DNA of 64,000 nt from Deltaproteobacteria bacterium (GCA_016214995.1 JACRML010000027.1:1766-65765), one strand, 5' to 3'; positions 184 through 47,843 are shown, counted from the stretch's first letter. Translations and numbers: made by a program. The notes: generated from the letters alone by a model not told the origin.

Positions 184-262
184 TTAGCGTATAGCGTATA
201 GCGGATAGCGAATAGAAAAACTATACGCTATGCGTCTCTCCTATACGCTATCCGCTATTTCC
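184..262. repeat. Degenerate heptamer-array hairpin (AGCGTAT/AGCGGAT units, then inverse CTATACG/CTATCCG units)
   Basis: agcgtat agcgtat agcggat agcgaat ag ... ctatacgctatgcg ... ctatacgctatccgctatt; period 7, arms roughly inverse-complementary. Confidence 0.7.
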
Positions 263-1298
263 TATCCGGCATTATCTTCACATCAACCGTCATCCCCAAT
301 TTGAAAGGCGTCTTTTCCTTGAGCAGTATCTTCACCTGAATGACCTTCATATCCAGATTCTTGGCAGGATTATTCGGCTTCACCTTTCTCTGCCCGACAT
401 AATCAAAAATCTCCTGAATCTCTCCTTTGAAAACCTTGCCCGGATAGCTGTCTGATGTAACCTCTGCCGGGTCTCCGACCTGTATCCTGCCTATGTCTGT
501 CTCGTCCACTTCTGTGTTTATCCTTGTTCTATCAACATCAGCAACAGCAGCTATCGGTGTTTCAGGGATTGCCGTCTCACCTTCCTCAAGATACTTGCGG
601 ATTACCTTGCCTGAGATTGGAGACTTTATAATTGTCTTTTCCAGAAACCTTTTATAATACTCTACTGTTGCCTCAGCCTGAGACACAGCATCCTTGTAAA
701 TTTTTAATGTCTCCTGTTTCGGCCCTTTTTCCAGAAGCCTTTTCCCTTGTTCCGCTTCTCTGGCTTTTGCCTTTGCAACCTTAAACAAACCCTTCTTTTC
801 ATCAAGAAGCGCCTTTGATATCACGTCCTCTTTGTAAAGCTGTTCATATCTTTCAAGGTTTGTTTTTGCCAACTCCATATCCGCCTCCGCAGCCTCAAGA
901 GCAGCCTCCGCCCTTTTAATCTCCTCTTCCCTTGAGCCAGAGGCAACCTCTTCATACCGCGCCTTTGCAACAGCCAGTTCAGCATCTGCCGCCTTAAACC
1001 TTGCCTGAATATCTTTATTATCCAGCCTTACTATTACCGCGCCTTTTTCTACACGATCCCCTTCATTAACAAAAAACTTGTCAATCCTTGCAATCATATC
1101 AGCACCCACCTCTATCTCCATGCCTGGCATTGCCTCCACCTTTCCTTCAGCGGCCACATACATAGCGGTGGTATGTAATAATGCCTTGTCATCATTCTTG
1201 CCGGCCTTTGTTTCTTGTGTGCCTGATTTTAACAAAAAGAATACGCCTGAAATCAGCAAAGCAATGAAAATTATGGCTGCAAACACCAGCTTTTTCAT
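255..1298 (-). CDS. HlyD/MacA-type periplasmic adaptor (membrane fusion protein)
   Basis: ORF 255..1421. Likely real start is MKKLVFAAIIFIALL (ATG at 1298), giving a signal anchor, long coiled-coil hairpin and beta-barrel region typical of HlyD_D23 adaptors. The 41 upstream codons translate a REP-like palindrome. Confidence 0.85.
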   Translation of the reverse strand: MKKLVFAAIIFIALLISGVFFLLKSGTQETKAGKNDDKALLHTTAMYVAAEGKVEAMPGMEIEVGADMIARIDKFFVNEGDRVEKGAVIVRLDNKDIQARFKAADAELAVAKARYEEVASGSREEEIKRAEAALEAAEADMELAKTNLERYEQLYKEDVISKALLDEKKGLFKVAKAKAREAEQGKRLLEKGPKQETLKIYKDAVSQAEATVEYYKRFLEKTIIKSPISGKVIRKYLEEGETAIPETPIAAVADVDRTRINTEVDETDIGRIQVGDPAEVTSDSYPGKVFKGEIQEIFDYVGQRKVKPNNPAKNLDMKVIQVKILLKEKTPFKLGMTVDVKIMPDRK

Positions 1299-1317
1299 CT
1301 GTCTTTGCTCCGAAAAT

Positions 1318-1410
1318 ACCCCATCCCCACCCCAACCCTCCCCTTGAAGGGGATGGAGTAAAATAGTCTCCTCTCCCTCAGGGAGAGGATTAAGGTGAGG
1401 GTGGGGTAAA
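1318..1410. repeat. REP-like nested palindromic element
   Basis: ccccaccc...tccccttgaagggga...cctctccctcagggagagg...gggtgggg; inner hairpins enclosed by an outer stem. Confidence 0.55.
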
Positions 1411-1437
1411 TTTTCATGCACCTTTGTGAGCCTATGC

Positions 1438-3250: not shown

Positions 3251-3312
3251 AAATTTAAAACAATTATGAATTAAGAATTAAATTCCTAATTCGTAATCCC
3301 TAATTTTTAATG

Positions 3313-3430: not shown

Positions 3431-3437
3431 AAGATAA

Positions 3438-3514
3438 GTAAGGAGTAGGCAGTAAGCAGCAGACAAAACGTTTCATTCTTTTACTGCATACTCCATACTG
3501 CTTACTGCTTACTC
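3438..3514. repeat. Degenerate heptamer-array hairpin (GCAGTAA family)
   Basis: ggagtag gcagtaa gcagcag ... ctgcata ctccata ctgctta ctgctta ctc. The right arm supplies the last codons (ESKQ*) of the adaptor gene. Confidence 0.7.
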
Positions 3515-4641
3515 TCTTTCGTTTCTATTCTTGCTCCGTCAAATAATTGGTCAAGGCCTGTTGTGGCAACCTTCTCGCCAGGCTTAATCCCTTCCATAAT
3601 CTCCACCCATCCTTGCTCACGGATGCCTGTTTTTACAAAACGTTCTGCGGCCGCACCATTCACAATCACATAAACCTTGTTTATACCTGCAAAAGAATAT
3701 ACAGCAGTCTCAGGGACAAAGGGGACGGTTTTTTCTTGCTTTGTTTTTATAACAACCTTGGCAAAAAAGCCTGATTTCAGCATATTGCTGTGATTTGGCA
3801 CCCTGGCCTCAATGGAAAACGTTCTCGTCTTTTCATCAATTGACGGGCTTACACGAATAATCTTGCCGGCAAATACATGATCAGGGAATGCATCTATGCG
3901 GACGGTAATATCCTGTCCAACATCTATCTCCGGGGCAAATGATTCCGGCACAGCGCCCTGAAATTTCAGCGGGTCATTTTTTACTAATATAAAAAGTGGG
4001 CTCTTGTCTTTTAACGTCTCTCCCGCAGATACAAACCTTTTTTTCACATAGCCTGATATGGGTGATATTATCTCCGTATCTGCAAGACGTTTCTTTGAAA
4101 GCTCAAGCTGGGCCTTTGCCAGATTGACCTGCGCCTCTGCCTGTTTTAACTGGGCGTCTGCAACATCATATTGTGTCTGCATTGCATCTCTTTGACTAAT
4201 AGAAATAACACCTTCCGAGAAAAGATTGACATATCTCTTGAGGTTTGCGCCGGCATCCTGCCATACAGCCTTTGCCCTCTCAAGACTACGGATATTTGTC
4301 TCCAGCAGAGCCTCGGATACGGCAAGATTTGTTTTGGCATCCTTCTGGTCTAATCGCAGCAGGAGGCCGCCTTCATCCACCCCGTCGCCAAGGTCAACAA
4401 AAACCTTATCTACTGTGCCGGCTGCCTCGTTGCCAATAGTTACTTCATCCCACGGGGCAAGGGTTCCTGTTGTCTCAATCGTTCTCTGGATAGCCTTGCC
4501 AACCGTTACTGCGGTAGTGACCTTAAATACTTTATCATCTTTTTTTTCACTTTGCTTGACCGCCCTATTTTCATTAGAGCAGGATGAAAGGACGAGCAGG
4601 GCAGCAAATAGACACAGGGTTATCTTTGCAATATTTTTCAT
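3502..4641 (-). CDS. Efflux RND-type periplasmic adaptor lipoprotein
   Basis: Lipobox LVLSSC, then a biotinyl-lipoyl-like domain, coiled-coil hairpin and beta-barrel architecture. Confidence 0.85.
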   Translation of the reverse strand: MKNIAKITLCLFAALLVLSSCSNENRAVKQSEKKDDKVFKVTTAVTVGKAIQRTIETTGTLAPWDEVTIGNEAAGTVDKVFVDLGDGVDEGGLLLRLDQKDAKTNLAVSEALLETNIRSLERAKAVWQDAGANLKRYVNLFSEGVISISQRDAMQTQYDVADAQLKQAEAQVNLAKAQLELSKKRLADTEIISPISGYVKKRFVSAGETLKDKSPLFILVKNDPLKFQGAVPESFAPEIDVGQDITVRIDAFPDHVFAGKIIRVSPSIDEKTRTFSIEARVPNHSNMLKSGFFAKVVIKTKQEKTVPFVPETAVYSFAGINKVYVIVNGAAAERFVKTGIREQGWVEIMEGIKPGEKVATTGLDQLFDGARIETKESKQ

Positions 4642-4697: not shown

Positions 4698-6041
4698 TTA
4701 CTTCCCCATCTCCTCCAACAGAATCCCCACTCGTTTCTTTAATTCCAGGATTGCAATCTGTAAATCATATTGTGCATTTGTAAGACCTCGCTGGCTTGAG
4801 ACCAGGGTTGCATTTGCATCAATCACATCAACATTTGTTGCAAGGCCATAGCTGAATTGCTTAAAAACCATATTATAATTCTCTTCTGCAAAAGACATCT
4901 GCCTTTTATACGATTCTATAATGGGATTAAATGCCTCAAGGTTATGAAAAGTCTCCCTTACCTCCAGTTCAATGTCCTTTCTCATTCTTACTCTCTTAAA
5001 TTCAGCCTGCCTTTTTTTACTCTTTGCCTCATTCAGTTCAGCCTTTCTTAAACCGCCTTCAAATATAGGAAAGGTAAAGGTAATTCCTGCATACATACTT
5101 TCTGCATTAAAAAGCGTTGATTTTGGATTCTGATCCCTGTTTGAATACACGCCTTCCAGCTTAAGGCTCGGCAGGAAGTTTCCAACAGCATATTTGACCG
5201 CCTCGTCGGCAATGTCTTCGCCTATTTTACTTTGGATATAATCCTGCCTTTTCTCCAGAGAAAGCGATATCAATCTGTCCAGACCGGCATCTGGGATAGG
5301 TTGAATATCAGGCTCGGCAACCTTAAATTGCTCGGACATACCTATAAAGCGCGCCAGCTTATCTTTCGCCACTAAAAGGTCTTTCTTTGCATTGGCAAGT
5401 TCTGTTTCTGCGCCTGCCACCTCTGCTTCTGCTCGCAACAATATAGCCTTTGTAACCTCTCCAACTTGAAATCTTGCGCTGGCCACCCTCCTCTGCTCTA
5501 TTGCCCTTTTTAAGGCAGCCTCCTTTATTTCTACTGTCTTTTCTGATTTCAAAACAGTGTAATATATTTTTGAAACATTGAGCACAATATCTTCTTTCGC
5601 AGCATCAAGGCTGTATTTGCCTGCCTCTGTCTTTTTCCTGGCCTGCCTTAAGAGGCTCCATTCCTTGCCTCCTGAATAGAGAGGCTGGCTGAGTTTTATG
5701 CTAAAAGATGAGCTGTTGTCGGGTTGAATACTAGACGCTCCGGAGGTCTTGCTTTCAGAATATTCTGTATAATTGCTATCTACAGTAACAGTTGGCATCA
5801 CCTGAGAAATTGCCTTGTCAATCCCTACCTCTGCCTGATACAGGTCTTCCTGAGATAATATAACAGACTCATAGTTAGAAACCGCAAGGAGAGAGGCATC
5901 GGTAAGGGTAATGGTCTTTTCTTCGGCATGAACTACAGTGAACAGTGAACAGTACACGGTGAATAGCAATAAAATTTTTTTGAAATCTGAAATTTGCCCC
6001 CGATTGATTCTATCGGGGGTGAAATTTGAAATTTTATTCAT
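4698..6041 (-). CDS. TolC-family outer membrane efflux protein
   Basis: 447 aa with two OEP repeats. Overlaps the TetR stop by 4 nt. The signal-peptide core is encoded by a CAGTGAA heptamer array (5931-5967). Confidence 0.85.
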   Translation of the reverse strand: MNKISNFTPDRINRGQISDFKKILLLFTVYCSLFTVVHAEEKTITLTDASLLAVSNYESVILSQEDLYQAEVGIDKAISQVMPTVTVDSNYTEYSESKTSGASSIQPDNSSSFSIKLSQPLYSGGKEWSLLRQARKKTEAGKYSLDAAKEDIVLNVSKIYYTVLKSEKTVEIKEAALKRAIEQRRVASARFQVGEVTKAILLRAEAEVAGAETELANAKKDLLVAKDKLARFIGMSEQFKVAEPDIQPIPDAGLDRLISLSLEKRQDYIQSKIGEDIADEAVKYAVGNFLPSLKLEGVYSNRDQNPKSTLFNAESMYAGITFTFPIFEGGLRKAELNEAKSKKRQAEFKRVRMRKDIELEVRETFHNLEAFNPIIESYKRQMSFAEENYNMVFKQFSYGLATNVDVIDANATLVSSQRGLTNAQYDLQIAILELKKRVGILLEEMGK

Positions 6042-7817: not shown

Positions 7818-7886
7818 GCGCGTAGCTGATAGCTGATAGTTGATAGCTGTTAATTTTTTACTGTGAGCTATGAACTATGAGCTATT
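7818..7886. repeat. Degenerate heptamer-array hairpin (TAGCTGA / GAGCTAT units)
   Basis: tagctga tagctga tagttga tagctgt ... gagctat gaactat gagctat. The right arm contains the DUF58 start codon. Confidence 0.7.
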
Positions 7887-8962
7887 TATCCGCACCATTG
7901 CCTTGGCTTACTGCGGCTGCCAACCTGCTGACCAGACAAAAGCAAATCAGCAAAAAGAAAATAGGTTTATTTGTCCTGCCAAGAACGCTCTCATTTACAA
8001 AAGAAGGAAAAAGGTTTATTGCAATCCTTTTTGTCATTGGTATAGCCGCCATCAATACAGGAAATAATCTCCTCTATCTTATTGTAGCAATGATGCTGTC
8101 CATTATAGTTATATCAGGGATACTTTCAGAATCTACATTAAGAGGCGTGGAGGTATGCAGAATATTACCAAGACATATATTCGCAGGAACTCCGGTAATA
8201 GTGAAATGGAACATTTCAAATAAAAAGAGGATTTTCCCGTCATTCTCTCTTGTAATAGACGAAGCCCTTCCCAATAAACTTACAGCAGAATCAGGTTATA
8301 TCCTGAAATTGCCTGCACGCACCACTCTTGCACAAATACGGCCGTATATATTCCATAAAAGAGGGCTGTATAAACTGGAAGGATTTAAAACAAAAACCAG
8401 TTTCCCATTCGGTTTTTTTCTAAAAGGAAGAAGACTGGATATGCCGGAAGATGCGCTGGTATATCCGAATATAAGACCCACGAAGCAAATAGCCGCAGTA
8501 AAATTTTCAAAAAGCGGGGAATTACCTGAAAAGATAAAAGGCTACGGAACACACCTTTACAGCCTCAGGGATTATACGCTTATGGATGATGCAAGAGTTA
8601 TCCATTGGAAGTCAACAGCAAAAACTACAAAATTAATGGCAAAAGAATTTGAACAAGAGGGAAATAAAAAGGTGAAGATTATCTTTTATAATACACTCAC
8701 TGAATCCACATCCCTCCCCGCTAATAAAGAGGAAACCATCAGCGGTTTAAAAGATGAGTTTGAAGAGAAGGTAGAGGAAGCTGCCAGCCTGGCCAATTAT
8801 TTTATAACTTCCGGTTTTGAGGTTGGTTTTAAAAGTCTGACCACAGAATTGCCATGCAGGTCAGGTAAAGAACAGCTTTACAGGATACTAAGAGAGCTTG
8901 CACTAATAGAGCCTGCTGCAGGCAGTAAAAATATGCCTCTGACTGTGGTTGTAAGCAAATAA
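7877..8962 (+). CDS. DUF58 (vWA-like) domain protein
   Basis: Two N-terminal TM segments and a LRDYTLMDDARVIHWKSTAKTTKLMAKEFEQE motif typical of DUF58. Classic partner of MoxR. Confidence 0.8.
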   Translation: MSYLSAPLPWLTAAANLLTRQKQISKKKIGLFVLPRTLSFTKEGKRFIAILFVIGIAAINTGNNLLYLIVAMMLSIIVISGILSESTLRGVEVCRILPRHIFAGTPVIVKWNISNKKRIFPSFSLVIDEALPNKLTAESGYILKLPARTTLAQIRPYIFHKRGLYKLEGFKTKTSFPFGFFLKGRRLDMPEDALVYPNIRPTKQIAAVKFSKSGELPEKIKGYGTHLYSLRDYTLMDDARVIHWKSTAKTTKLMAKEFEQEGNKKVKIIFYNTLTESTSLPANKEETISGLKDEFEEKVEEAASLANYFITSGFEVGFKSLTTELPCRSGKEQLYRILRELALIEPAAGSKNMPLTVVVSK

Positions 8963-12423: not shown

Positions 12424-12534
12424 AATTTCTAATTTCTAAATCCTAATTTCTAATAAAATGTCAAATGTCAAAAAACATTGGAAATTTAGTCATCGGACAT
12501 TTCATTGGAAATTAGACATTAGGATTTAGGATTT
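12424..12534. repeat. Long degenerate heptamer-array hairpin (CTAATTT/CTAAATC family)
   Basis: ctaattt ctaaatc ctaattt ctaata ... aattagacattaggatttaggattt, with an inner gtcaaatgtcaaaaaacattg palindrome. Confidence 0.7.
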
Positions 12535-12539
12535 TCAAG

Positions 12540-13991
12540 TCATCCTTTCCAAAATATCGGAGTAAATAAAATCAAAAGTGTATATATCTCAAGCCTGCCA
12601 AGAAGCATGCAGAATATAAGAAGCCACTTGCCGATATAAGGGATCTCGCTGAAATTTGAAAGCGGACCGATAACCCCAAGGCCTGGCCCTACGCCGCCCA
12701 TTGTTGTAGCAACTGAGGAAATAGCGCTGACTATATCAAGCCCCAGAAATGTCATTGCCAGAGAAACCACAAAAAAGATAACAATATACAAAAATGTAAA
12801 ACCAATTGCGCCTGTCATAACCTCAGTAGGAACAACCCTGTCGCCAAGCTTTATCGGTATAACGGCATGAGGATGTATAAGGTGGCGAAGCTCTTTATAT
12901 CCTTGTTTAAGCAATAACATAATTCTTAAGCATTTTATAGCCCCCGTTGTTGAGCCTGTTGAACCACCAATGAGCATCAATACAACGAGAATAAGCTGTG
13001 AGAAAGAAGGCCACTTTGCAAAGTCAGTAGATGAAAAACCAGTGCATGTTCCTATGGAAACAACCTGAAATGACGCATATCTGAAAGATGAAATAATATT
13101 ATCATAAAATGAAAAACGGAGATTAACTGTAACAAGGAATATGGCAAGCAGTTGCAAACCAAAATAAAAACGAAATTCGGAATTCCGCCAGTATATCTTT
13201 GGCCCATGTTTCAAGATGTTTGTATGCAATGCAAAATTTGTTGCAGAGAGAAACATAAATATCGTGATAATAAATTCAATGAGCGGGCTGCGATAATATT
13301 CAACGCTTATGTCTTTATTGGAGAATCCGCCTGTTGCAACAGTGCCAAACGCATGTATAACTGCGTCAAAAGGCCCCATGCCTGCCAATATAAAGGCAGT
13401 CATTCCTGTGACGGTAATTCCAATATAAACCAGGCCGAACAGCTTAACAGTTTCAATAAGCCGCGGTGCCAGCTTATCGGAAGAAACCCCCACGCCCGTG
13501 GCCTCTGCCCTGTAAAGCTGCATCCCTCCTATCCCAAGTATCGGCAATATGGCTATAGATAAAAGGATTATTCCCATGCCCCCAATCCAGTGTGTTAAAC
13601 TTCTCCATAAGAGTATGCCATGCGGCAGATTTTCTACAGATGTAAAAACAGAGGCGCCTGTTGTTGTAAAACCTGATATGGACTCAAAATAGGCATCTAC
13701 GAAATTAAGCAGTGTCCCTGAAAAAAGATATGGCAACGCCCCAAATAAACCGGCGCTCATCCATGCAATTGCGGTTATGGCAAAACCCTCTCTGTGCGAA
13801 ACGTCTATCCGCTGTCCTTTAAAGAGCATGAATAAAACACCGCCAATGCCTGAAGTTAATATGGCTGATGACAATAGGGCTATTACCGCCGGCTCTCTAT
13901 ACGCAAGAGATATTGCAGCAGGAACCAGCATGGAAGAGCCAAGAACTATGCCCAATATCCCAAGAAGATACAAAATTACTTTGACTCTCAT
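12540..13991 (-). CDS. trkH: TrkH-family potassium uptake protein
   Basis: 483 aa polytopic protein with repeated selectivity-filter-like GFTTTG/ATGGFS/GSTGSTTGA/TMGGVGPG motifs. Adjacent to trkA. Confidence 0.9.
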   Translation of the reverse strand: MRVKVILYLLGILGIVLGSSMLVPAAISLAYREPAVIALLSSAILTSGIGGVLFMLFKGQRIDVSHREGFAITAIAWMSAGLFGALPYLFSGTLLNFVDAYFESISGFTTTGASVFTSVENLPHGILLWRSLTHWIGGMGIILLSIAILPILGIGGMQLYRAEATGVGVSSDKLAPRLIETVKLFGLVYIGITVTGMTAFILAGMGPFDAVIHAFGTVATGGFSNKDISVEYYRSPLIEFIITIFMFLSATNFALHTNILKHGPKIYWRNSEFRFYFGLQLLAIFLVTVNLRFSFYDNIISSFRYASFQVVSIGTCTGFSSTDFAKWPSFSQLILVVLMLIGGSTGSTTGAIKCLRIMLLLKQGYKELRHLIHPHAVIPIKLGDRVVPTEVMTGAIGFTFLYIVIFFVVSLAMTFLGLDIVSAISSVATTMGGVGPGLGVIGPLSNFSEIPYIGKWLLIFCMLLGRLEIYTLLILFTPIFWKG

Positions 13992-14011
13992 TATCGCTTC
14001 ACCACATTTTC

Positions 14012-14060
14012 AAGGTTAAGTGATTTTCTTTCCTCAACCTCAGCCTTAACCTTAACCTAT
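14012..14060. repeat. Heptamer hairpin, AGGTTAAG/CTTAACC family
   Basis: caaggttaag ... ctcaacctcagccttaaccttaacct. The same family recurs at 18120-18197. Confidence 0.6.
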
Positions 14061-14062
14061 CT

Positions 14063-15430: not shown

Positions 15431-15587
15431 TCATGCCTCCCATACTAATGTGCAGTCAACGCCATAAATAAGAAACAAATTCTTTTTAAATAAAAATCAA
15501 AACAGTGGAAATTCGATCACTGGGTGTTTTATTAGAAACATGTCCCCGAAGGTCTTCATCGTGGATTAGACATTCGGATTTTCTCTC

Positions 15588-16619
15588 TCAATGTTTGTCT
15601 TTCTGCATAACTATCTTTTTTGCTGCTGCAGACAGGGCGCTTGAAACATTTTTACTTTTCGCAATATGCTGAACATCTTTCTCGTGTAATTGACTTATAA
15701 GCCGCATGGCAACGGCTAAAGGTGTCTTGGGGTTATTAACCATGCCCAATTTTACGGGATATTTTTTTAGCCACTCCTTGTTGTTTGCCACCTGCCTGAG
15801 TATATCGTCTGAAATACTTCTTGAGTTGACTACCTTTACAACCTCGTCTTCAGTAATCCTCGGATTTTTTAATACGGTAGATGAAATAAGCTTATTGGAA
15901 TCCTTCAAAAGTATGTCCCTCGCCTCCTTATTGCCAAGCAGGGCCAGCTTAATCCTTTCCGCAACATTCATACGCTGCACTTTTTTATAAAAACTTTCCT
16001 TCTCTGCCTCCGTCACAGCTTCCTTTTCTGTTTTCAAATCAGCATCAATGGCCGATGCTTCTTTAGCCGTCTCCCTTATGGAGGGGGGTTCTATTTCAGC
16101 AGGCTTAGGTACATCCTCTGGCTTTGGAGCGGGCCTTCCAATTGATACAAGAAAGGCCTCCACCCTGTCAACAACAGATTTGCCAACACAAGGATTGGCT
16201 TTAAGAGCATCCAGCAGGGATGGGTTGCGCATGAGCCTTGTTTCATTTTCTGCTACGATATTTGCCACATTCTCAGGGCCATTGGAGGCCAGGAATGTCA
16301 TTGTCTCATCGTCCGTATTGCGATTCAATGCAACCATCACAAGTATCGCCTCATCTCTCTGATGAATATTTGCAATGGCCTTTGTCACAGCAGGGTTCAA
16401 ATCACCATCCAAAACCGTCAGCAATAAATCGGCAGGAACCCCTTCGAGGCTTTTTTTTGCCGTTTCACTAACATCATGGTCGCTATCGCCTAAAAGCATG
16501 CAAAGAAGCGTAACCATATCCTTTGGTTCCATGGGAAAGGCAGCCTTAGCCGCCATAAGCCTTGTTTCCTTACTGGTTTGAGGGGAGACAAACTTCTCCA
16601 AATTGGCTGGTATTTTCAT
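15588..16619 (-). CDS. Hypothetical protein, alpha-helical repeat (HEAT/ARM-like)
   Basis: ORF 15588..16643. ATG 16619 lies 9 nt downstream of GGAG. No recognisable catalytic motif. Confidence 0.5.
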   Translation of the reverse strand: MKIPANLEKFVSPQTSKETRLMAAKAAFPMEPKDMVTLLCMLLGDSDHDVSETAKKSLEGVPADLLLTVLDGDLNPAVTKAIANIHQRDEAILVMVALNRNTDDETMTFLASNGPENVANIVAENETRLMRNPSLLDALKANPCVGKSVVDRVEAFLVSIGRPAPKPEDVPKPAEIEPPSIRETAKEASAIDADLKTEKEAVTEAEKESFYKKVQRMNVAERIKLALLGNKEARDILLKDSNKLISSTVLKNPRITEDEVVKVVNSRSISDDILRQVANNKEWLKKYPVKLGMVNNPKTPLAVAMRLISQLHEKDVQHIAKSKNVSSALSAAAKKIVMQKDKH

Positions 16620-16642
16620 GGTCGCTTTACTCCATGCAAACA

Positions 16643-16791
16643 AAATCCTAAACGCAGGAAAATCCTAAATCCTAACTTCTAAATCCTAAACAAATTCAAA
16701 ACCCAAAAGTCCAAATGTTCAAAACTGTTTTGAATTTAGAATTTTGGTCATTTGATATTATTTAGGATTTCGGATTTAGAAATTAGAATTT
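16643..16791. repeat. ~150-nt degenerate heptamer-array palindrome (AATCCTA family)
   Basis: aatccta aatccta acttcta aatccta aa ... caaattcaaaac/gttttgaatttag ... tttaggatttcggatttagaaattagaattt. Confidence 0.7.
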
Positions 16792-16817
16792 GTCTTTCCA
16801 TATTATATCCCAACATC

Positions 16818-18109: not shown

Positions 18110-18119
18110 ATTTAAAACA

Positions 18120-18197
18120 GGCTAAGGCTTAGGCTCAGGTTAAGAAAAAAACAAGCAACACTTTTTTATTTTTTATATTTCTCAACCTTAACCTTTA
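18120..18197. repeat. Heptamer hairpin, GGCTAAG/AGGTTAAG...CTTAACC family
   Basis: ggctaag gcttagg ctcaggt taag ... ctcaaccttaaccttt. The right arm overlaps the stop of V-ATPase D. Confidence 0.6.
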
Positions 18198-28373: not shown

Positions 28374-28374
28374 T

Positions 28375-28704
28375 CTATCTCTTAATTTTCACCTGATACC
28401 CTATTGCCCTTCTGATAAGCCGTGCGATATACGACTCCATCTCTACCTCGCTATGCCATGATTTTGGTGTATTTATCGGAACAATAACAGGTATGCCTGT
28501 CTTTCTAATCCTCTTTAAAATGCCTTCATCAACCTTTGTCAGCAATTTTTCTTCTATAGCCAGAAGGCCGTAGCCGCCGGTTTTTACGATGTCATTCAGA
28601 ACAGCCGTGATATCCTCACCCTCTTGAACCTCTTTGACCTCAACACCTGCAAGGTTAAAACCAAGAGATGTGTCTGGATATGTGATTACAAGGAGTTTGG
28701 ACAT
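28375..28704 (-). CDS. atpF: V-type ATP synthase subunit F
   Basis: MSKLLVITYPDTSLGFNLAGVEV..., the F-subunit fold pattern. ATG 28704 preferred over the TTG at 28719. Confidence 0.8.
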   Translation of the reverse strand: MSKLLVITYPDTSLGFNLAGVEVKEVQEGEDITAVLNDIVKTGGYGLLAIEEKLLTKVDEGILKRIRKTGIPVIVPINTPKSWHSEVEMESYIARLIRRAIGYQVKIKR

Positions 28705-28710
28705 ATCAAA

Positions 28711-28793
28711 AAGTTGCAAGTTCCAAGTTGCAGGTTTTAAGTTTAAAAAATGTAGTTCAAATCTTGAAACTTGTTACTTGAAACTTGAAACTT
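28711..28793. repeat. Heptamer-array hairpin (AAGTTGC / GAAACTT family)
   Basis: aagttgc aagttcc aagttgc aggtttt aagttta ... cttgaaa cttgtta cttgaaa cttgaaa ctt. The same family occurs at 47801-47843. Confidence 0.75.
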
Positions 28794-30944: not shown

Positions 30945-30963
30945 AAACACCTCCATTCAGTTT

Positions 30964-31024
30964 ATTAGAGAATTGGTGGATTAGTTAATTTGTTTTTCTA
31001 ATTCGCTAATCTCTAATTCTCTGA
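30964..31024. repeat. Low-complexity hairpin (GATTAG/CTAATC family)
   Basis: agagaattggtggattagttaatt tgttttt ctaattcgctaatctctaattctct. Confidence 0.65.
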
Positions 31025-31025
31025 T

Positions 31026-32939
31026 TTATTTTCCTGTCTTTCTAAACGGTTCATATCTTCTTCCGCCTGCCTGATAAAATTTGCTGAAAAACTCCACATA
31101 GTGGAGTCTCAGTGATTGAATACCCGGACTAAGTATGCCCAGTAATATGTTTATGACATGTATTATGCCGGCTATGAATATGCCAAGGATAACATTGCCG
31201 GTCAAGCCGCCCAATTTATTCGCCACCAGCGCCAATGCAACAGATGCGGTTCCAATGGCCATGATACGGGCATATGAAAGAATATTGCCGATTGTCTTCA
31301 ATGCCTCCAATGGCCCGATAATCCCTTCAAACAATATAAGTATAATAAAGGCAGCCAGCATAATAACTACACCGGGTGTAATGAGTCCCTTTGGCAGATA
31401 ACCTGCCAGGATGGCCACTATAGTAATCAGGGCAAGCATCAATATCAAAGTAGATGCCTTTGCCATAGCCTCCTTACCCTTGCCCCTGTGGATATAATTA
31501 ACTATTGCAAGCATTAAACCAAGGAGTATATGTCCTATGCCTATTCCAATCGCTAATACCAGAAAAACCTTCATGGCCTTCACTCTGTCAAAGATTATTG
31601 GATGAAGCAGGCCAAACCTTTCCCCCAAATCTCCAAAAAATTCTCCGAAAAATATTCCAAATGCCACTGCAAACAGGCTTGAAATAGTTAAGACAGAGGC
31701 AAGATTGGCAAGATACTCTTTTGCCTTAAATCGCTTTTTGAGATAAAGACTCAACATAAAGAGTATGCCGCCATATCCGATATCGCCGAGTATGAGGCCA
31801 AAAAATGTTGGAAAGAATAATGCAAGATATGGCGTTGGGTCTACAGAACCATACTTAGGCGGTGGCAGGATATTTAAAAAAACCTCAAAGGGCTTTAAAA
31901 GTTTTGGGTTTTTTATATACACAGGTATTAAGTCTATCTCATCCTCCCTTATCTCCATCTCCCGCACCATAACCTTATCACTAAACTTATCCATGATAGC
32001 TATGGAAAGGGCATGGAATTTATCCTTAGGAATCCATCCAACTATAACAAACGTAAACCTTGTATGGGCGCAATATACAAGGGTCTTTAACTCATCAATC
32101 GTGTCACGCAGAAGCCTCATCAACAATTCAAGCTTTTTATACCATTCAAGCGCTAACCCATTTAATTTATTATCAATATTCATTACCAGAACAGGCATTT
32201 CTTCCCTTCTCTTTATCATAACCTTGAGCGCATCAAAGAGCGTCATATCGGTATATCTTTCTGGAAGCTTTATCTCTGCTATGGCCTCGCTGGCGATAAG
32301 CGCCTTCATCTTTGCATCATATTTTTTAGGGTAGGTAATTACAATGCCAATAGTATCTTTATCTATATCTTTTACAAAAAACTGATGCCTCTCTTCTGCA
32401 ATACGGCCTACCTCATTCTCAAGCAAAGGGATAATATCCTCTTTGGCCCTGTCAATGGTAATGCCGATTGTCTCAAAATTATTAAGCCCCTTTAATTTTG
32501 CCACAAGAGGCGCAATGCCCTTTAATATCTTTTCATAACGTCCGATAGATGAAATTTCCTCTGAAAGCCCTGCCTTTTCAGCATGCAGCCCTTTAACCTC
32601 TTTCTCCAATTTATCCACTTCATCCAGAAAGGCATGAGATGTAATATCTGCAAGCAAAACAGGCATATCGCCTGTCATCAAGCCTTCTTCCCTTCCTGCC
32701 CCTGATGCAGGAAGCAGAAGATATATACCCTTCAGCCGTTCAAGTATCTTCTCAAGCCTTTCCTTGAGCAAAGCCTTTTCTCTTTCAATAGGCTGTCTTC
32801 TTAAGTATGAATCTTCAAGCCCAATCCTTGCAGGTATACTCTCTATATGAACAATGCCAAGATTATGGAGCAGCCTTATAACCTCATCCAGAAGCGCCTT
32901 GGAACCAATAAGCTGTACCTTGCTCATTACCTTTATCAT
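31026..32939 (-). CDS. atpI: V-type ATP synthase subunit I (a-subunit, stator/proton channel)
   Basis: 637 aa: soluble coiled N-half and a 7-8 TM C-half with the conserved Arg region (LSYARIMA). Confidence 0.85.
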   Translation of the reverse strand: MIKVMSKVQLIGSKALLDEVIRLLHNLGIVHIESIPARIGLEDSYLRRQPIEREKALLKERLEKILERLKGIYLLLPASGAGREEGLMTGDMPVLLADITSHAFLDEVDKLEKEVKGLHAEKAGLSEEISSIGRYEKILKGIAPLVAKLKGLNNFETIGITIDRAKEDIIPLLENEVGRIAEERHQFFVKDIDKDTIGIVITYPKKYDAKMKALIASEAIAEIKLPERYTDMTLFDALKVMIKRREEMPVLVMNIDNKLNGLALEWYKKLELLMRLLRDTIDELKTLVYCAHTRFTFVIVGWIPKDKFHALSIAIMDKFSDKVMVREMEIREDEIDLIPVYIKNPKLLKPFEVFLNILPPPKYGSVDPTPYLALFFPTFFGLILGDIGYGGILFMLSLYLKKRFKAKEYLANLASVLTISSLFAVAFGIFFGEFFGDLGERFGLLHPIIFDRVKAMKVFLVLAIGIGIGHILLGLMLAIVNYIHRGKGKEAMAKASTLILMLALITIVAILAGYLPKGLITPGVVIMLAAFIILILFEGIIGPLEALKTIGNILSYARIMAIGTASVALALVANKLGGLTGNVILGIFIAGIIHVINILLGILSPGIQSLRLHYVEFFSKFYQAGGRRYEPFRKTGK

Positions 32940-32974: not shown

Positions 32975-33093
32975 GAGAGAGGAAACAGGAAAGAGTTTCT
33001 CTCTTTTCTAATTCCTAATTTCTCTTTCCTGTTTTGCTATAACTTTGCATTTTCCAATTTACAATCTTCAATCTACAATTTTCAATCTACAAT
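32975..33093. repeat. Inverted repeat plus CAATCTA heptamer array
   Basis: aggaaacaggaaagag / ctctttcctgttt, then caatctt caatcta caatttt caatcta caat. The last units encode the C-terminus of the H/G-like protein. Confidence 0.65.
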
Positions 33094-33399
33094 ATGCCGC
33101 ACAACTATCTCAACAGCCTTTTCCTGCCTCTTCTCTACCCTCAGCCTTAATTCTTCAGCCTGTTTTTTTGCCTCTGCCTTTATAATATCAGCTTCTTTTT
33201 CAATCTTCTCCATCTCCTCTTTTTTATGCTCATGCAGCATCCTTTCAACCTGTTTTGACATGGATACCCTCATCTCTTCTGCCCTATGCAGTGCATCCTG
33301 TTTAATCTTCAGCGCCTTTTGCTTGGCCTCATTCAACAGGTTCTCCAGTTCATCTTCTTTTCGCTTCAAAGATTCTATGACGTCTGTTTCATTCATCAT
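33082..33399 (-). CDS. V-type ATPase peripheral-stalk subunit (H/G-like), K/E-rich coiled coil
   Basis: ~105 aa single charged helix immediately upstream of subunit I. Assignment rests on position and composition only. Confidence 0.5.
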
Positions 33400-38954: not shown

Positions 38955-40598
38955 TTATTTATTTTTTGACCTATTTAAACCTAAAACCCATAACCCATAG
39001 CCTGCAACTATAATCATGCACCCGATTGCAAATATATCACCATATCTTGAATAGAATGTAAATTGGTTTATATCCTTTATTTTGATATATCCCGCCATGG
39101 CTTCTCTTGTAAATATATCGCTTTTCAATATAATTCTCCCGACAGGGTCAATCACCCCGCTTACGCCTGTATTCGCTGCCCTTATTAAGAATACCTTATT
39201 TTCCACAGCCCGAAATACCGCTTGAGAAAAGTGCTGATAGGGCGCCGATGTCCTGCCGAACCATGCATCGTTTGTTATATTTACAAGAAACCCCGCCCCC
39301 TCATTGATAAAACCCCTTGCAAGCTCTGGAAATATTGATTCAAAGCATATCAAGACCCCGAAACTATCGCCGTCCAATTCAAGCGGTTTAAGCCATTTTC
39401 CGGAGCTGAAATCTCCAACTCCTACAACAAGCTTATGTATAAACGGCAGATAATTTTTGAGCGGCACATATTCTCCAAACGGGACAAGATGGATTTTATC
39501 ATATTTCCCAACAAGCTCACCCTTTGGCGATATGAGAAAGGCGCTGTTATAATATTTTACTTCACCGTCAAAGCCTAGCCCGTATGCATCGTTGCCGGTA
39601 AAGAGGTAGGCATTGGCCTCCCTGGGCAAATTAAATACCTCAGGGCCTAACTCTTTATCAGATTGAAGATAGAATGGGATTGCTGTTTCAGGCCAGATAA
39701 TGAGCCTTACCCCTTGTTTTGCCAATGCCATGTTTAAATTTTTATAAATATCCACGGTCTCTTTTTTAAAAGATATATCCCATTTTCTGCCCTGGTCTAT
39801 ATTGCCCTGAGCAATGCCTATTTTTAAGGTTTTCCAATTTTGCGATATCTTGTCTGTCTCATATATTCTGAAAAAACCATAAATCAAAACAATAATTAAA
39901 ATGAAAGAAACAACAAACCCGCTTTTTAAGAAAGGTGAAAGCTGAAAGCTTACAGTTGATAGTTCTTTATCTTCTTTGAGCTTTGAGCTTTTAGCTTGTA
40001 TCGCAAGAAATATAAACATATTTACCATGACTATCAAAAAAGAAACGCCGTATACGCCTGTAATATCCGTTATCTGGATAATGGGAAGGAGTGAAGACTG
40101 GGAATAGCCTAAAAGAACCCATGGGAAGCCTATGGTAATCATGTTAGTCCTTATGTATTCCAGGCCAACCCATAATGACGAGGTAAACAAAACCTTTAAT
40201 AATAAATTTGTTTTTATGGATAATACAATTGAGGTGCCAAATCCAAAGGCAGCGAAGAAAAGGGCAAGATATAATACCAGCAAAAGGAGAACCAAAATAC
40301 TGGTGAAGAACGGAACACCTCCGTAATTAACCATTGAGTTCACCACCCAATAGACTGTGCCAAGAAAAAAGATAATGCCCCACAAAAGACCGAGTAAAAA
40401 CCCTCTTTTGCAAAATTTAGGCAAGGAAATTCCAGCGCCTTTCCTGACCCCCGCCCCCTGACTCCCGACTGCTGTATCACTAAGCGCAAAGAAAAATGGC
40501 ACCATCCCAACCCATGCAAAAAAACCAATATCAATGGGCGGGAATGCTGCAATAAGCATGGCCCCTGAAAGTATGCTCAGAAAAATAGTGCGCGTCAT
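38955..40598 (-). CDS. lnt: Apolipoprotein N-acyltransferase
   Basis: Multi-TM N-half and CN-hydrolase domain with IIWPETA, K and VLICFES catalytic motifs. Confidence 0.9.
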   Translation of the reverse strand: MTRTIFLSILSGAMLIAAFPPIDIGFFAWVGMVPFFFALSDTAVGSQGAGVRKGAGISLPKFCKRGFLLGLLWGIIFFLGTVYWVVNSMVNYGGVPFFTSILVLLLLVLYLALFFAAFGFGTSIVLSIKTNLLLKVLFTSSLWVGLEYIRTNMITIGFPWVLLGYSQSSLLPIIQITDITGVYGVSFLIVMVNMFIFLAIQAKSSKLKEDKELSTVSFQLSPFLKSGFVVSFILIIVLIYGFFRIYETDKISQNWKTLKIGIAQGNIDQGRKWDISFKKETVDIYKNLNMALAKQGVRLIIWPETAIPFYLQSDKELGPEVFNLPREANAYLFTGNDAYGLGFDGEVKYYNSAFLISPKGELVGKYDKIHLVPFGEYVPLKNYLPFIHKLVVGVGDFSSGKWLKPLELDGDSFGVLICFESIFPELARGFINEGAGFLVNITNDAWFGRTSAPYQHFSQAVFRAVENKVFLIRAANTGVSGVIDPVGRIILKSDIFTREAMAGYIKIKDINQFTFYSRYGDIFAIGCMIIVAGYGLWVLGLNRSKNK

Positions 40599-44641: not shown

Positions 44642-45132
44642 TTTGTAATCTCCAATTGCGTTGCATTTTGCAATTTGTATTTTGCAATCTTCAGCAGTCT
44701 CTCCTCTTCTTTTCTCATCCTCCTGGCCTCTTTGCTGCTTTTCTCGTGGTCAAAGCCAAGAAGGTGCAAGATGCCGTGAATCAAAAGCCTTGCCAACTCT
44801 TCCTTCAAAGTTACGTCATTTTCTTTAGCCTGGGTTTTTGCAGTTTCCAGAGATATAACAATATCGCCCAAAATGAGTTGGGAGTTCGGAGTTCGGAGTT
44901 CGGAGTTAAAATCCCACATTGGAAACGAAAGCACATCCGTAGGTCTGTCCTTTTTTAAATATCTCTTGTTTAGCCTCTGAATACCATTATTGTCAGTTAA
45001 AAGTATGCTCAGCTCTGCATCACGGCAACCCAAATCTTTTAACACCGTCCTTGCTAAACCACTTATCTTTTTTAGCCCCGCCCTCTCCTTCTGATTGTTT
45101 TGTATCAGGACCTTCACTAATTTCCCCCTCAA
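44620..45132 (-). CDS. ybeY: rRNA maturation RNase YbeY
   Basis: HGILHLLGFDH zinc motif. The start is uncertain because the ORF overlaps the upstream gene by 113 nt. Confidence 0.85.
   Translation of the reverse strand: MRGKLVKVLIQNNQKERAGLKKISGLARTVLKDLGCRDAELSILLTDNNGIQRLNKRYLKKDRPTDVLSFPMWDFNSELRTPNSQLILGDIVISLETAKTQAKENDVTLKEELARLLIHGILHLLGFDHEKSSKEARRMRKEEERLLKIAKYKLQNATQLEITNWKKIKS
44874..44908. repeat. GGAGTTC heptamer tandem array (5 units) inside the ybeY coding sequence
   Basis: tgagttg ggagttc ggagttc ggagttc ggagtta. Encodes the ...FNSELRTPNSQL... loop just before the conserved LGDIVIS. Confidence 0.85.
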
Positions 45133-46735
45133 ATATATAATCTGCCGGCTCCGGATACTCTATCCTTTGATGAAACATCCCGGCAAGCGCCCTGTTGAAG
45201 CTTTTGGCAATGATATTAAGGTCTTTAAGCATCAGTTCGCATTCATCAAGCTGGCCGTCCACAAATATCTTGTTTATAATCTTTTGAACCATATTGTGAA
45301 TCTTTGCGGCAGTTGGGTCAGGAATGGTTTTGGATGCCGCCTCAACCGCATCAGCCAGCATCACTAATCCTGCTTCCTTGGTTCTAGGTTTTGGCCCCGG
45401 ATATCTAAAATCCTTTTCATTTACCTCGGCAATGGTTATACCTTCTTTATTTTTTGCCTTCTGATAGAAATAACTTATCAGTGATGTGCCGTGGTGCTGC
45501 TGAATTATATCTATAATTTCCTCACCAAGCCTGTGATCCTGTGCAAGTTCCACACCTTCAGTTACATGCGATATAAGTATCCTGGCGCTGATATCAGGAG
45601 TAAGGATGTCGTGCCTATTCTCGCCTCTCATATTTTCAATAAAGTATAATGGGTTCTTTACCTTGCCTATATCATGATAGTATGCGCTAACCTTTGCCAG
45701 AAGAGGATTGGCATTGATTGCCTCTGCTGCCGCCTCCACCATGCTTCCGATTATGATTGAATGATGGTATGTGCCAGGGGCGTGAAGGGCAAGCTCTTTT
45801 AAAAGCGGATGATCCATTCTTGCCAGTTCAAGATGTCTTATATTGGTGGTATATCCGAATACCATCTCAAATATAGGTGCAATGCCTGTTACTATCACCG
45901 ATGTTATCTGTCCGCCAATAAACCCAAAAAGGACTGTAAAAATATCCTCTCGTACAGACCATCTGCCATTTATGATTATCAAGCTTACAATGGTGAGGAT
46001 ATTTACGAAGCCCAGTATAATGCCTGCCTTTGTTATTGTAACCCTTTGTGTGGCATGGCGAATACCTTTAGCCGCTATAATCCCTCCAATAAAAAAATAT
46101 GCCGCAAGGTTTAGGCTTCCCTCTAAAAATATACCTGAGATTAAACTTATCACCGCAGCAAAAACCAAGGCTGTTTCTGAATTCAGGAAAAGTCTTATGA
46201 GCATTGGTCCTGCGGCTATTGGCAGAAGATATAGATATACATGAGACGATATAACCGGAAATGTGGTTTCGATAGACTTTGCAACAAATAGAGAAAGTTT
46301 TGCCAGCACAAGAATAGTCACAAGCACAACGCCCATGAGAAGGACATCTTTTGGCGATGAGGCAAATTTTCTTATATTCTTTGCAGAAAATGTATAGGCG
46401 GAGTAAAAGAGGATGATGATGAAAAAGAAAATGCCAATGGTGGAAATAAAAAACCCTTTGCCGTAAGAGGCCTCTTGAGCCACCCTTAATCTTTTAATTA
46501 TATCTTCTGTAACCTTATCCCCTGCCCTTACTATACTCTCACCTTGCTTTATATCCGCACCTTCTATAGTGATATTTTGGTCGGCCGTAACATTTGCAAC
46601 TGCAATATCGCCAACCTTGTATGAATATCCTATGAACGAGATGTTTTTGGAAAATAAGACAGCAGCAATGCCGCCAACTAAAATAGCAATGGCCCACTTT
46701 TGAAATACAAGAGATTTTATAGATGCTCTATGCAT
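45020..46735 (-). CDS. 7TM-HD family phosphohydrolase (PgpH/YqfF-like)
   Basis: 7 TM helices followed by an HD domain (HHSIIIGSM ... YYHDIGK ... QHHGT). Confidence 0.85.
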   Translation of the reverse strand: MHRASIKSLVFQKWAIAILVGGIAAVLFSKNISFIGYSYKVGDIAVANVTADQNITIEGADIKQGESIVRAGDKVTEDIIKRLRVAQEASYGKGFFISTIGIFFFIIILFYSAYTFSAKNIRKFASSPKDVLLMGVVLVTILVLAKLSLFVAKSIETTFPVISSHVYLYLLPIAAGPMLIRLFLNSETALVFAAVISLISGIFLEGSLNLAAYFFIGGIIAAKGIRHATQRVTITKAGIILGFVNILTIVSLIIINGRWSVREDIFTVLFGFIGGQITSVIVTGIAPIFEMVFGYTTNIRHLELARMDHPLLKELALHAPGTYHHSIIIGSMVEAAAEAINANPLLAKVSAYYHDIGKVKNPLYFIENMRGENRHDILTPDISARILISHVTEGVELAQDHRLGEEIIDIIQQHHGTSLISYFYQKAKNKEGITIAEVNEKDFRYPGPKPRTKEAGLVMLADAVEAASKTIPDPTAAKIHNMVQKIINKIFVDGQLDECELMLKDLNIIAKSFNRALAGMFHQRIEYPEPADYIFEGEISEGPDTKQSEGEGGAKKDKWFSKDGVKRFGLP

Positions 46736-46802
46736 AATGCGTTTGTTGCGTTTATAGCGTTATTGCGTTTATAACCCGCTATAACCATCCGCGCTATAAC
46801 GT
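46736..46802. repeat. Low-complexity hairpin (GCGTTTAT / ATAACGC family)
   Basis: gcgtttgttgcgtttatagcgttattgcgtttataacccgctataaccatccgcgctataacg. Confidence 0.65.
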
Positions 46803-47807
46803 TTCAGCTTCGTTCTCTTCTTTCTTCCTTCCCCTCCCCTCATACGCCTTTATTACCTCTTGAACCAATGGATGCCTTACAACATCCTTTTCAGTAAAAT
46901 AGGCAAAGCCTATGCCTTCAACACCTTGCAGTATCTTCTGGACCTCCACCAGACCGGACGGCTTTGCAAACGGCAGGTCTATCTGTGTAACATCTCCTGT
47001 TATAACAGCCTTTGAGCTGAACCCAAGCCGTGTCAAAAACATCTTCATTTGTTCTGATGTGGTATTCTGGGCTTCATCCATTATCACGAAAGAGTCGTTT
47101 AATGTCCTGCCTCGCATGAATGCAAGCGGAGCAACCTCTATAGTGCCTCTCTCTATCAGCTTCTCCGCCCGTTCAAAATCAATCATGTCATGAAGCGCAT
47201 CGTATAGCGGCCTTAGATATGGGTCAACCTTTGCAGCCAGATCTCCTGGCAAAAATCCAAGTTTTTCACCAGCCTCTACTGCAGGTCTGGTAAGTATTAT
47301 CCTCTCTACTTCTCTTTTAGATAATGCAGCAACTGCCATTGCCATAGCGAGATATGTTTTGCCTGTGCCTGCCGGCCCTATGCCAAAGACGATGTCATAT
47401 TTTCGTATGGTGTCTATATATCTTTTCTGCGCAGGACTTTTTGGCGAAATAATCTTTTTCTTGAACGATATATAGACAGTATCAGTGAATATATCCGCAA
47501 GGTGAGTTTCTCTATCTGTCTCAATCGCCCTTATGGCATAATCTATATCAGTTGGATGAAGTCCATAACCCTTTTGTAAAAGGTCTGTCAGTTCATTCAA
47601 AAGCCTCTCCGCTACAGAGACCCTCTGCGCCTCACCGTGGACTACTACCATATTCCCCCTTGTATCAAGCTTTACCCCCAGCTTCTTTTCCAGACGCTTC
47701 AGGTTCTCGCCTGTTTCGCCAAAAAGGGCGGCTGCAATGGCATTATCCTCTATGGTAATATGTTTAAATATTTTTTCTTCTACGTTCAACATATAAAAAA
47801 GTTTCAA
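46794..47807 (-). CDS. phoH: PhoH-family ATPase (YbeZ-like)
   Basis: Walker [14 protein letters not shown] box. The start may be the internal MLNVEEK. Confidence 0.9.
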
Positions 47808-47843
47808 GTTGCAAGTTTCAAGTAAAAAACCTGCATTGCAACT
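47801..47843. repeat. Heptamer hairpin (AAGTTGC family, second locus)
   Basis: gtttcaagttgcaagtttcaagtaaaaaacctgcattgcaact. Confidence 0.65.

Follow-up and report, generated by a model that had tools for sequence, protein, structure and literature searches.

Many spacers between genes in a 64,000-nucleotide stretch of DNA (the window; C3:1766-65765, from GCA_016214995.1 JACRML010000027.1, Deltaproteobacteria bacterium) are filled by a recurring design. Tandem, imperfect copies of a unit of 7 nt, sometimes 8 nt, are followed by an array of the inverse-complement unit, giving hairpins with two repetitive arms. The locus raises the question of what these elements are and how they came to lie there. 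The reading favoured here, with a probability of about 0.6, is that the window hairpins are members lacking an open reading frame (ORF) of a pan-prokaryotic class of palindromic elements akin to the intervening sequences (IVS) of 23S rRNA genes. They look like ORF-less IVS-like elements because genes of the family PF05635 (S23p, named after the intervening sequences of 23S rRNA, and Avd-like) are wrapped in arrays of the same kind, which agree with the hairpins in arm length and in their purine-first bias. None of the window hairpins has a PF05635 ORF in its loop, and for this reason the copies in the window are ranked as ORF-less relatives and not as full members.

The host is an uncultured groundwater bacterium known from a metagenome-assembled genome (MAG) of 1.98 Mb in 99 contigs, which is 82% complete. 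Its closest named relatives are the groundwater 'Deltaproteobacteria bacterium RIFCSPHIGHO2_02_FULL_43_33' and NC_groundwater MAGs, while its class-level relatives are Syntrophales-like. Gene positions below are crude longest-ORF calls, and the relatives used for comparison are about 85% identical, which is too distant for exact insertion boundaries.

Paired heptamer arrays and PF05635 genes

A search with Tandem Repeats Finder (TRF) over the full assembly yields 860 arrays of period 7, compared to 53 in a third-order Markov simulation. Periods 14 (239 vs 10), 21 (56 vs 3) and 8 (187 vs 59) are also in excess. The period-7 arrays described by the original prediction, made by reading the window alone, are strongly enriched at the scale of the genome. 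Its statement that the unit sequence differs between loci is borne out by the presence of 259 different canonical units. The array-plus-inverse-array design that it described is not random either. An inverse-complement array located at most 120 nt away, with a score of at least 24, accompanies 348 of 1109 merged 7/8-type arrays; such a partner is found for 18 when the flank of another array is taken, and 32 have a direct-repeat partner.

Strict pairs of an array and its inverse form 216 non-redundant hairpins, with a median arm of 25 nt and a median loop of 22 nt. Their minimum-free-energy stems are AT-rich and have a median of 26 paired bp (interquartile range 22-31), interrupted by single mismatches spaced by about 7 nt. 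The length of the arrays has a sharp mode at 31-32 nt, or about 4.5 units. Among 210 ORF-less elements, the arm rich in purines is the 5' one in 163 and the opposite holds in 47, a property common to both strands. Runs of at least five A are found in 26% of the loops and runs of at least five T in 14%, for a background of 6%; they are positioned within the loop, not 3' of the stem. Permutation of the order of units within an arm hardly reduces complementarity (27.7 vs 26.0, rank 0.61), showing that the arms match at the level of the unit consensus and that neither is a mirror copy of the other. An origin by recent palindromic duplication of a single arm was rejected on the same result. Singletons account for 141 of the 216 elements, and dispersed families with conserved non-repetitive cores, present in both orientations, form clusters of 13, 13, 10 and 7 members. 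The mode of 4.5 units is close to three helical turns and holds both in this genome and beside PF05635 genes of distant phyla.

The genome codes for three PF05635 proteins, on contigs C49, C10 and C65. All three genes are wrapped by inverse-complementary 7/8-mer arrays, and these loci are its only ORF-bearing cassettes. Wrapping is found for 10 of 1749 genes overall, the non-PF05635 ones being housekeeping genes that lie between two hairpin-filled spacers. The C10 protein matches Xanthomonas S23p (PDB 2GSC, E 3e-10), and the PF05635 family is homologous to Avd, an accessory protein of diversity-generating retroelements (DGR; PMC10053308). The arms of the cassettes in this genome match 5-22 ORF-less hairpins, including the one at 28312 of the window.

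The same organization is found far outside this species. PF05635 loci of genus- to class-level relatives are wrapped in about 20 of 20 cases, each with a different unit. In a sample of 77 PF05635 loci from more than 15 phyla, which includes Acidobacteriota, Bacteroidota, Planctomycetota, Clostridia, Chloroflexota, Proteobacteria, Elusimicrobiota and archaea, inverse-complementary flanks are present in 81% of the loci and in 8.6% of mismatched controls. The TRF periods in these flanks are 7 (115 arrays), 14 (24), 8 (18), 21 (8) and 16 (8), all others being found at most 4 times. The arm-length mode of 31-32 nt is common to PF05635 cassettes and ORF-less hairpins, and the purine-rich arm of the cassettes is the 5' one in 34 cases versus 18. 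A cassette of Luteimonas (Xanthomonadales) has GGGATCT-type arms. In four 'quiet' genomes, where array density is at background, the cassettes are wrapped in 15 of 17 cases (control 6.6%). The arms are thus integral to the cassette, because cassettes bear them also in array-poor genomes. Four features are thus common to ORF-less and ORF-bearing forms: the period, the arm mode of 31-32 nt, a chirality with purines first and, in this genome, the families of units.

Orthologous junctions provide a further link. Between a histidine kinase and a response regulator gene (HK-RR junction), an orthologous S23p cassette with GAATTAG-type arms is found in the present genome (G000; C10:18921-19452) and in relative G008. 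An ORF-less CAGTAGA hairpin is found at this position in G005 and G009, and other palindromes in G002, G004 and G007. G009 also carries a CAGTAGA-armed PF05635 cassette at another site. As read from these alignments, ORF-less and ORF-bearing forms are shown to interchange at orthologous gene junctions.

Occupancy of the HK-RR junction conflicts with genus, since the cassette is present in G000 (genus g1) and G008 (g3) and the hairpin in G005 (g1) and G009 (g2). The window element at 12424 displays the same incongruence, being conserved in G008 and replaced in G004, which belongs to the same genus as the host. Such incongruent occupancy suggests recombination between lineages or old polymorphism. 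Another arrangement is seen at the PF05635 cassettes L055 (G002), L059 (G007) and L064 (G009), which lie directly 5' of the amino termini of type IV (pseudo)pilins (GFSLVELL..., GFTLLEAI...). In G002 the S23p frame runs through the pyrimidine arm into the pilin, yielding an open frame of 379 amino acids.

Hairpins of the window

The arrays of the window are given below by position in the window, without strand assignment; z scores compare each fold with 200 dinucleotide shuffles.

184..268, heptamer hairpin, TAGCGTA x4.4, A5 loop, CTATACG x5.6 (TRF; -35 kcal/mol, z -5.8)
3255..3310, short AATTAAG / AATTCCT array hairpin immediately 5' of the start (3250) of a MacB-like permease gene (TRF; z -4.7)
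3432..3520, hairpin of AGTAAGC and TACTGCA arrays that overlaps the stop of an HlyD-like gene (3502..4641, minus strand) (TRF; z -4.7)
5931..6040, ACAGTGA array and GAAATTT units (z -3.3)
7818..7890, hairpin of TAGCTGA x3.9 and ACTATGA x3.7 with a T-rich loop (TRF; z -4.2)
12424..12540, nested hairpin of about 110 nt, outer arrays CTAATTT/AGGATTT, inner arrays AAATGTC/GACATTT (z -5.9)
14005..14062, hairpin of AGGTTAAG type between trkA and trkH (z -2.8)
15480..15590, element of the CTAATTT family, 5'-truncated, with an embedded mini-hairpin at 15543-15565; full-length element at the same site in G004
16640..16800, nested hairpin of about 150 nt, outer AAATCCT and inner CAAAAGT arrays (z -3.8)
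18115..18197, decayed AGGCTAA / AACCTTA arrays (z -0.4, not significant); ATTGCAA-family hairpin here in G004
28305..28385, octamer hairpin, TAGCGAAT x3.4, T5 loop, CTAATCTC-type arm, within the V-type ATPase operon (z -4.2)
28705..28797, AAGTTGC / CTTGAAA heptamer hairpin between the genes of V-ATPase subunits C (AC39) and F (z -5.7)
30960..31030, octamer hairpin of TAGAGAAT type, paralogue of 28305, 5' of the V-ATPase I subunit gene (z -7.7)
33050..33100, solo array CAATCTA x5.6 with no inverse arm (TRF; fold 0 kcal/mol)
39925..40000, hairpin of GAAAGCT and CTTTGAG arrays within the coding sequence of Lnt, read in frame as part of the linker that joins the LNT_N and CN_hydrolase domains (z -5.3; Pfam)
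44655..44912, two solo arrays in ybeY (TRF; Pfam)
46733..46800, array of the 8/9-mer GCGTTTAT, whose inverse arm is vestigial (z -1.4, not significant)
47795..47860, AAGTTTC x3.6 array, A6 loop and vestigial inverse arm in the GH57-PhoH junction, a relative of 28705 (z -0.5)

Strong folds are found at ten of these loci (184, 3255, 3432, 7818, 12424, 16650, 28305, 28705, 30960 and 39925; z -3.8 to -7.7, 0 of 200 shuffles reaching the value). Two others fold moderately, at 14005 (z -2.8) and at 5931 (z -3.3), the latter mainly through an embedded mini-hairpin. The folds at 18115, 46733 and 47795 do not differ significantly from the shuffles. The count of at least 15 hairpin-bearing spacers given at first was therefore too high: 10 to 12 loci fold, and about five of those cited are solo or decayed arrays. 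Not all copies are intergenic, the exceptions being the hairpin in the Lnt linker, the array at 44875-44907 in YbeY and that at 9962 in TgpA. In ybeY, TTGCAAT x4 (44661-44688) codes for the carboxyl-terminal tail of the protein, while GAGTTCG x4.7 (44875-44907) is in frame within the YbeY domain; the array at 9962-9985 is translated in frame in the amino-terminal domain of TgpA. Recurrence of families within the window was correctly noticed, the pairs being 28305 and 30960, 12424 and 16640, 28705 and 47795, and 14005 and 18115. A scan of the whole window with Rfam found no known RNA family at the hairpin loci; its only matches are a PyrR-binding leader (RF00515, 55.5 bits) at 61288-61399 and a tRNA gene at 11268-11340.

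Several elements fit tightly between two genes. The hairpin at 184..268 occupies the junction from the stop of an HlyD-like gene (255) to the start of the next minus-strand gene (about 177), and the one at 7818..7890 the junction from MoxR (stop 7817) to DUF58 (start about 7877). The element at 12424..12540 lies between the trkH stop and the start of a trxB-like gene and belongs to a dispersed family of 10 copies with a conserved core; its orthologous spacer has another family in G004 and G007 and is empty in G009. The hairpin at 14005..14062 is missing in relatives, where a TAATG overlap (G007) or a plain 30-nt spacer (G004) is found. The hairpin at 16640..16800 stops just 5' of the Shine-Dalgarno (SD) sequence of the downstream gene, and the one at 28305..28385 is of the family that also forms the arms of the C10 cassette with its PF05635 gene.

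Other small repeats are found among the arrays. A GC mini-hairpin of 23 nt, CCCCCGAT-N7-ATCGGGGG, mostly followed by CAGG (about 27 nt in total), has about 100 copies genome-wide, often inside heptamer arrays. Its copies in the window are at 5997-6019, where it interrupts the GAAATTT units of 5931..6040 (CCCCCGATTGATTCTATCGGGGG), 15543-15565 and 26255-26277. Removal of the 27-nt mini-hairpin leaves the array in phase, for example at C98:992. At 3306-3431, between two heptamer hairpins of one spacer, a second palindromic repeat (CTCGTTCCCAAGC...GCTTGGGAACGAG) is present twice and has the look of a small mobile element in its own right. The junction at 18845-18902 is taken up by a palindrome rich in GC (GTAGGGGCGGCC...GGCCGCCC...CCCCTCCCCTAC), the same junction in G004 being filled by an AGGTTGA heptamer hairpin. 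Similar CCCCTCC/GGAGGGG palindromes occupy the HK-RR junction in G002 and G004. A 22-nt unit, GATTACACAGATTAAAAAACAT, is present twice at 30643-30685.

Gene junctions, turnover and competing explanations

The junctions that hold a hairpin are co-directional in 176 cases, convergent in 8 and divergent in 12, for 1407, 193 and 192 gene pairs of the genome, respectively. From the stop codon to the 5' arm the median distance is 7 nt, and from the 3' arm to the crudely called start it is 11 nt, often directly before the SD sequence. Comparison of filled and empty sites reveals whole insertions of 86-94 nt between the stop and the next start, an example being the rpmH-rnpA junction, which reads ...AAATAATGGGG in G006. 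The ORF-less hairpins are insertions between the stop and the next start of co-directional gene pairs. On the syntenic contig of G004 (83-88% nucleotide identity) one window hairpin is conserved (16640-16800), one is decayed and several junctions have another family or none, while the same unit families occur at other, non-orthologous junctions of that genome. At 28 orthologous junctions on contigs of family-level relatives the element is conserved in 2 (and partially in 2 more), 12 have another 7/8-mer array, 10 have other sequence and 4 are empty. These alignments show a turnover of the hairpins far more rapid than that of the genes beside them.

Array density was also compared with gene content. 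The density of period-7 arrays in 25 class-level relatives, each represented by at least 15 kb of sequence, correlates with the number of PF05635 copies (rho 0.84; partial correlation 0.76 with the number of Y1 transposase genes controlled; 0.71 in outgroups alone). A phylum-level sample consisted of 10 high-copy and 9 zero-copy PF05635 genomes from different families. In this sample densities of at least 0.2/kb are seen only in PF05635-positive genomes. The correlation, strong at class level, failed at phylum level and is for this reason not used as primary evidence. Blooms of ORF-less elements are lineage-specific, and PF05635 may be near-necessary for them without being sufficient.

A number of results weigh against the reading of the hairpins as ORF-less IVS-like elements. 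At phylum level the correlation between PF05635 and arrays is not replicated (rho 0.12, not significant), and array density stays at background in several genomes that have 4-11 cassettes; S23p therefore does not suffice for ORF-less elements to proliferate. The present genome has 3 cassettes for 216 hairpins, most unit families being without a cassette in it. The causal role of PF05635 in hairpin proliferation is unproven. Two comparisons of filled and empty sites, with inexact boundaries due to the divergence of the relatives, revealed no clear target-site duplication (TSD), a possible AAAG being seen in one, and no transposition intermediate. Folding energy is equal on the sense and antisense strands (73 vs 87), hence there is no signature of selection at the RNA level; selection of this type through G:U asymmetry was rejected on that result. 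The element 16640-16800 is about 95% conserved in G004, compared to 87-92% for the flanking genes, and this higher conservation hints at a host function for some copies. Finally, the MAG has no rRNA genes, hence its own 23S gives no view of a true IVS.

Functions for the host can be put forward on the basis of hairpin position. The elements could be a beneficial punctuation of operons that processes or stabilises mRNA (RNase III sites, 3'-end protection) or tunes translational coupling, the PF05635 link being secondary. The precise occupancy of stop-to-start junctions in co-directional pairs, the stems of about 26 bp, the well conserved element just mentioned and the presence of several hairpins inside the V-ATPase and trk operons speak for this idea. 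It is nevertheless unlikely, given that the element is kept at only 2-4 of the 28 orthologous junctions, 4 being empty and many having unrelated palindromes, that folding is without strand asymmetry and that the same elements are found in frame inside genes. A purpose of the units in providing stops in all three frames was rejected, the enrichment being modest (59% vs 42%, whole elements). Position beside start codons, together with published proposals for Geobacter Gmet_I sites (PMC2700814) and TAACTGA repeats, might also point to binding-site arrays of a global DNA- or RNA-binding regulator. This is highly improbable: with 259 canonical units in one genome the hairpins are not sites of one sequence-specific regulator, and orthologous junctions have different units or none. 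Rho-independent terminators or attenuators with a repeat-built stem, which would explain stable hairpins starting a few nt past stop codons, are scarcely credible. T-runs 3' of the hairpin are not in excess (13% vs 12% background), convergent junctions are depleted (8 observed for about 21 expected from 193 of 1792 pairs) and co-directional ones enriched, and a GC-rich stem with a U-run at the 3' end of transcription units is not what is found, the stems being AT-rich and the A or T runs lying in the loop. The hairpins are not intrinsic terminators, which disposes of the possibility, raised with the original prediction, that they would turn out to be ordinary ones.

Other explanations concern the origin of the elements. 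They could be simple-sequence repeats formed in situ by slippage with a lineage-specific 7-nt bias, the inverse arm arising by local strand switching and nothing being mobile. Locus-specific units, the large share of singletons, complementarity of the arms at the unit-consensus level only, the variation of heptamer copy number among Coxiella strains (PMC4990558) and a 17-nt indel inside the conserved element (comparison with G004) all agree with this mechanism. It is still decidedly unlikely in view of array lengths that peak sharply at 31-32 nt and do not follow a decaying distribution, of dispersed families whose non-repetitive cores are conserved and occur in either orientation, of the same families at non-orthologous sites of sister species and of the whole 86-94-nt insertions at stop/start junctions that otherwise overlap. 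Mobilisation in trans by Y1 (PF01797; RAYT/IS200-type) transposases, as for REP/REPIN-like elements, would account for insertion without a clear TSD since these enzymes act on DNA hairpins with no target duplication, and 12-13 PF01797 genes are present in the 2-Mb genome (on C99, C45, C11, C50, C9, C91, C90, C28 and other contigs). Among the class-level relatives array density rises with the number of Y1 genes (rho 0.58), but the partial correlation falls to -0.16 once PF05635 is controlled. Arrays are moreover found within 600 nt of at most 1 of 12 Y1 genes, whereas RAYT genes are normally flanked by REP sequences; G010 has arrays without Y1, G024 and G025 have Y1 without arrays, and sequence-specific Y1 enzymes are not expected to serve 259 units. 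This explanation of the hairpins is thus very unlikely, and the Y1 transposases may serve the mini-hairpins or other repeats. Spread driven by a reverse transcriptase, an idea that came from the homology to Avd, was rejected: PF00078 is absent in five array-rich genomes at least 90% complete, and the presence of reverse transcriptase does not follow array density among the class-level relatives (rho -0.08).

Under the favoured reading of the hairpins as ORF-less IVS-like elements, the complete form would begin with an array of 7-mers, sometimes 8-mers, rich in purines, continue with a small PF05635 gene and end with the inverse-complement array, and the ORF-less forms would derive from such cassettes. 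They would be selfish or nearly neutral DNA whose presence in operon junctions is tolerated. In the transcript, the stem of about 26 bp is probably a substrate of RNase III, by analogy with the Coxiella IVS, and the insert could be cut out of, or within, the RNA with no termination of transcription. The stem would also bring the stop and start codons back together. Local slippage or conversion would homogenise the units, accounting for locus-specific units and periodic mismatches.

A broader proposal, possible but doubtful, is that heptamer hairpins and PF05635 genes belong together in a single class of mobile 'RNA-excisable' elements that is ancient and pan-prokaryotic. The S23p pentamer would be its own factor, ORF-less copies would be non-autonomous, and their blooms would explain the excess of heptanucleotide repeats in bacteria. 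In such a class the pentamer could bind about 4.5-5 heptamer units (31-35 nt) in each arm. The heptanucleotide excess in bacterial genomes was reportedly noted with the STRR repeats in 1990 and by Mrazek in 2007, and then in Geobacter in 2009 and in Xanthomonas in 2015. Known for decades, it has no accepted origin or function, and the PF05635/S23p proteins are likewise unexplained despite solved structures and their homology to the DGR factor Avd. If both belong to one class of elements, the two puzzles become testable. There is also a practical side: the hairpin elements split operon junctions, are translated as parts of linkers, tails and signal peptides, and interfere with gene calling and with the assembly of MAGs from uncultured lineages.

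Comparison with known systems

The short tandemly repeated repetitive (STRR) heptanucleotide sequences and the small dispersed repeats (SDR) of heterocystous cyanobacteria are said to have been described by Mazel in 1990 and Elhai in 2008. STRR are tandem intergenic heptamers like those found here, and the resemblance proposed at the outset is reasonable. They differ in their cyanobacterial phylum and in their units, neither the canonical STRR units nor a cyanobacterial host being found in this case, and the inverse-array hairpin design is reportedly not emphasised for them. The SDR reported by Elhai in 2008 are said to be tiny GC mini-hairpins of about 23-27 nt within heptamer arrays, a parallel to the mini-hairpins of this genome with their roughly 100 copies.

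The repetitive extragenic palindromes and their derivatives moved by REP-associated tyrosine transposases (REP/REPIN-RAYT), as well as transposable elements of the miniature inverted-repeat type (MITEs), are also small, non-coding, palindromic, high-copy, mainly intergenic and patchy between relatives. In the present elements, however, no sequence is conserved across copies, there being no palindrome shared by the set (141 of 216 singletons), the arms are internally periodic, and no flanking RAYT gene (at most 1 of the 12 PF01797 genes) and no clear TSD are seen. The gene associated with them codes for a four-helix-bundle protein and not for a transposase.

Contrary to the initial view that the paired design belongs to no described class of elements, paired arrays are known in Xanthomonas (PMC4692102), in Geobacter metallireducens (PMC2700814) and in the Coxiella IVS (PMC4990558). 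Xanthomonas genomes have 70-75 convergent inverted pairs of GGGAATC, and the Nostoc repeat is GGGGAYT (Rehm et al. 2015, PMC4692102). These repeats share with the present ones the intergenic heptamer excess, the length of the repeat varying by species. They have one dominant G-rich unit, studied for its ability to form G-quadruplexes, whereas the units found here are AT-rich and diverse. In Geobacter metallireducens, 7/8-mer arrays are paired on opposite strands (Gmet_I classes 1-3 and Gmet_H4; PMC2700814). These sites have 4-5 tandem 7/8-mers with an opposite-strand array and are multicopy, intergenic and sometimes intragenic, in a deltaproteobacterial lineage. They have few consensus units and were read as sites of a global regulator, while the present genome has hundreds of units with rapid turnover and the link to PF05635. 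Paired arrays of 4-5 tandem 7/8-mers, as known from Geobacter and Xanthomonas, are thus found here (mode about 4.5 units), but the small number of consensus units is not (259).

A close counterpart under the favoured reading is the S23p-bearing IVS of the 23S rRNA genes of Coxiella burnetii and Leptospira (PMC4990558). The window copies differ from it by the lack of an ORF and by their location in mRNA junctions or in frame in proteins, instead of 23S helix 25/45. They also number hundreds per genome with many unit families, and their compatibility with RNase III is one of stem length only. The Coxiella IVS codes for S23p, has terminal inverted repeats that form a 28-bp stem and carries tandem GACAGAT heptamers whose copy number varies among strains; RNase III cuts it at the first repeat (PMC4990558). 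Both systems thus have a stem of similar length (about 28 bp in the IVS) built with heptamers that vary in copy number, a low GC content relative to the host and, in the complete form, a PF05635 ORF in the loop, and the IVS, too, is regarded as selfish.

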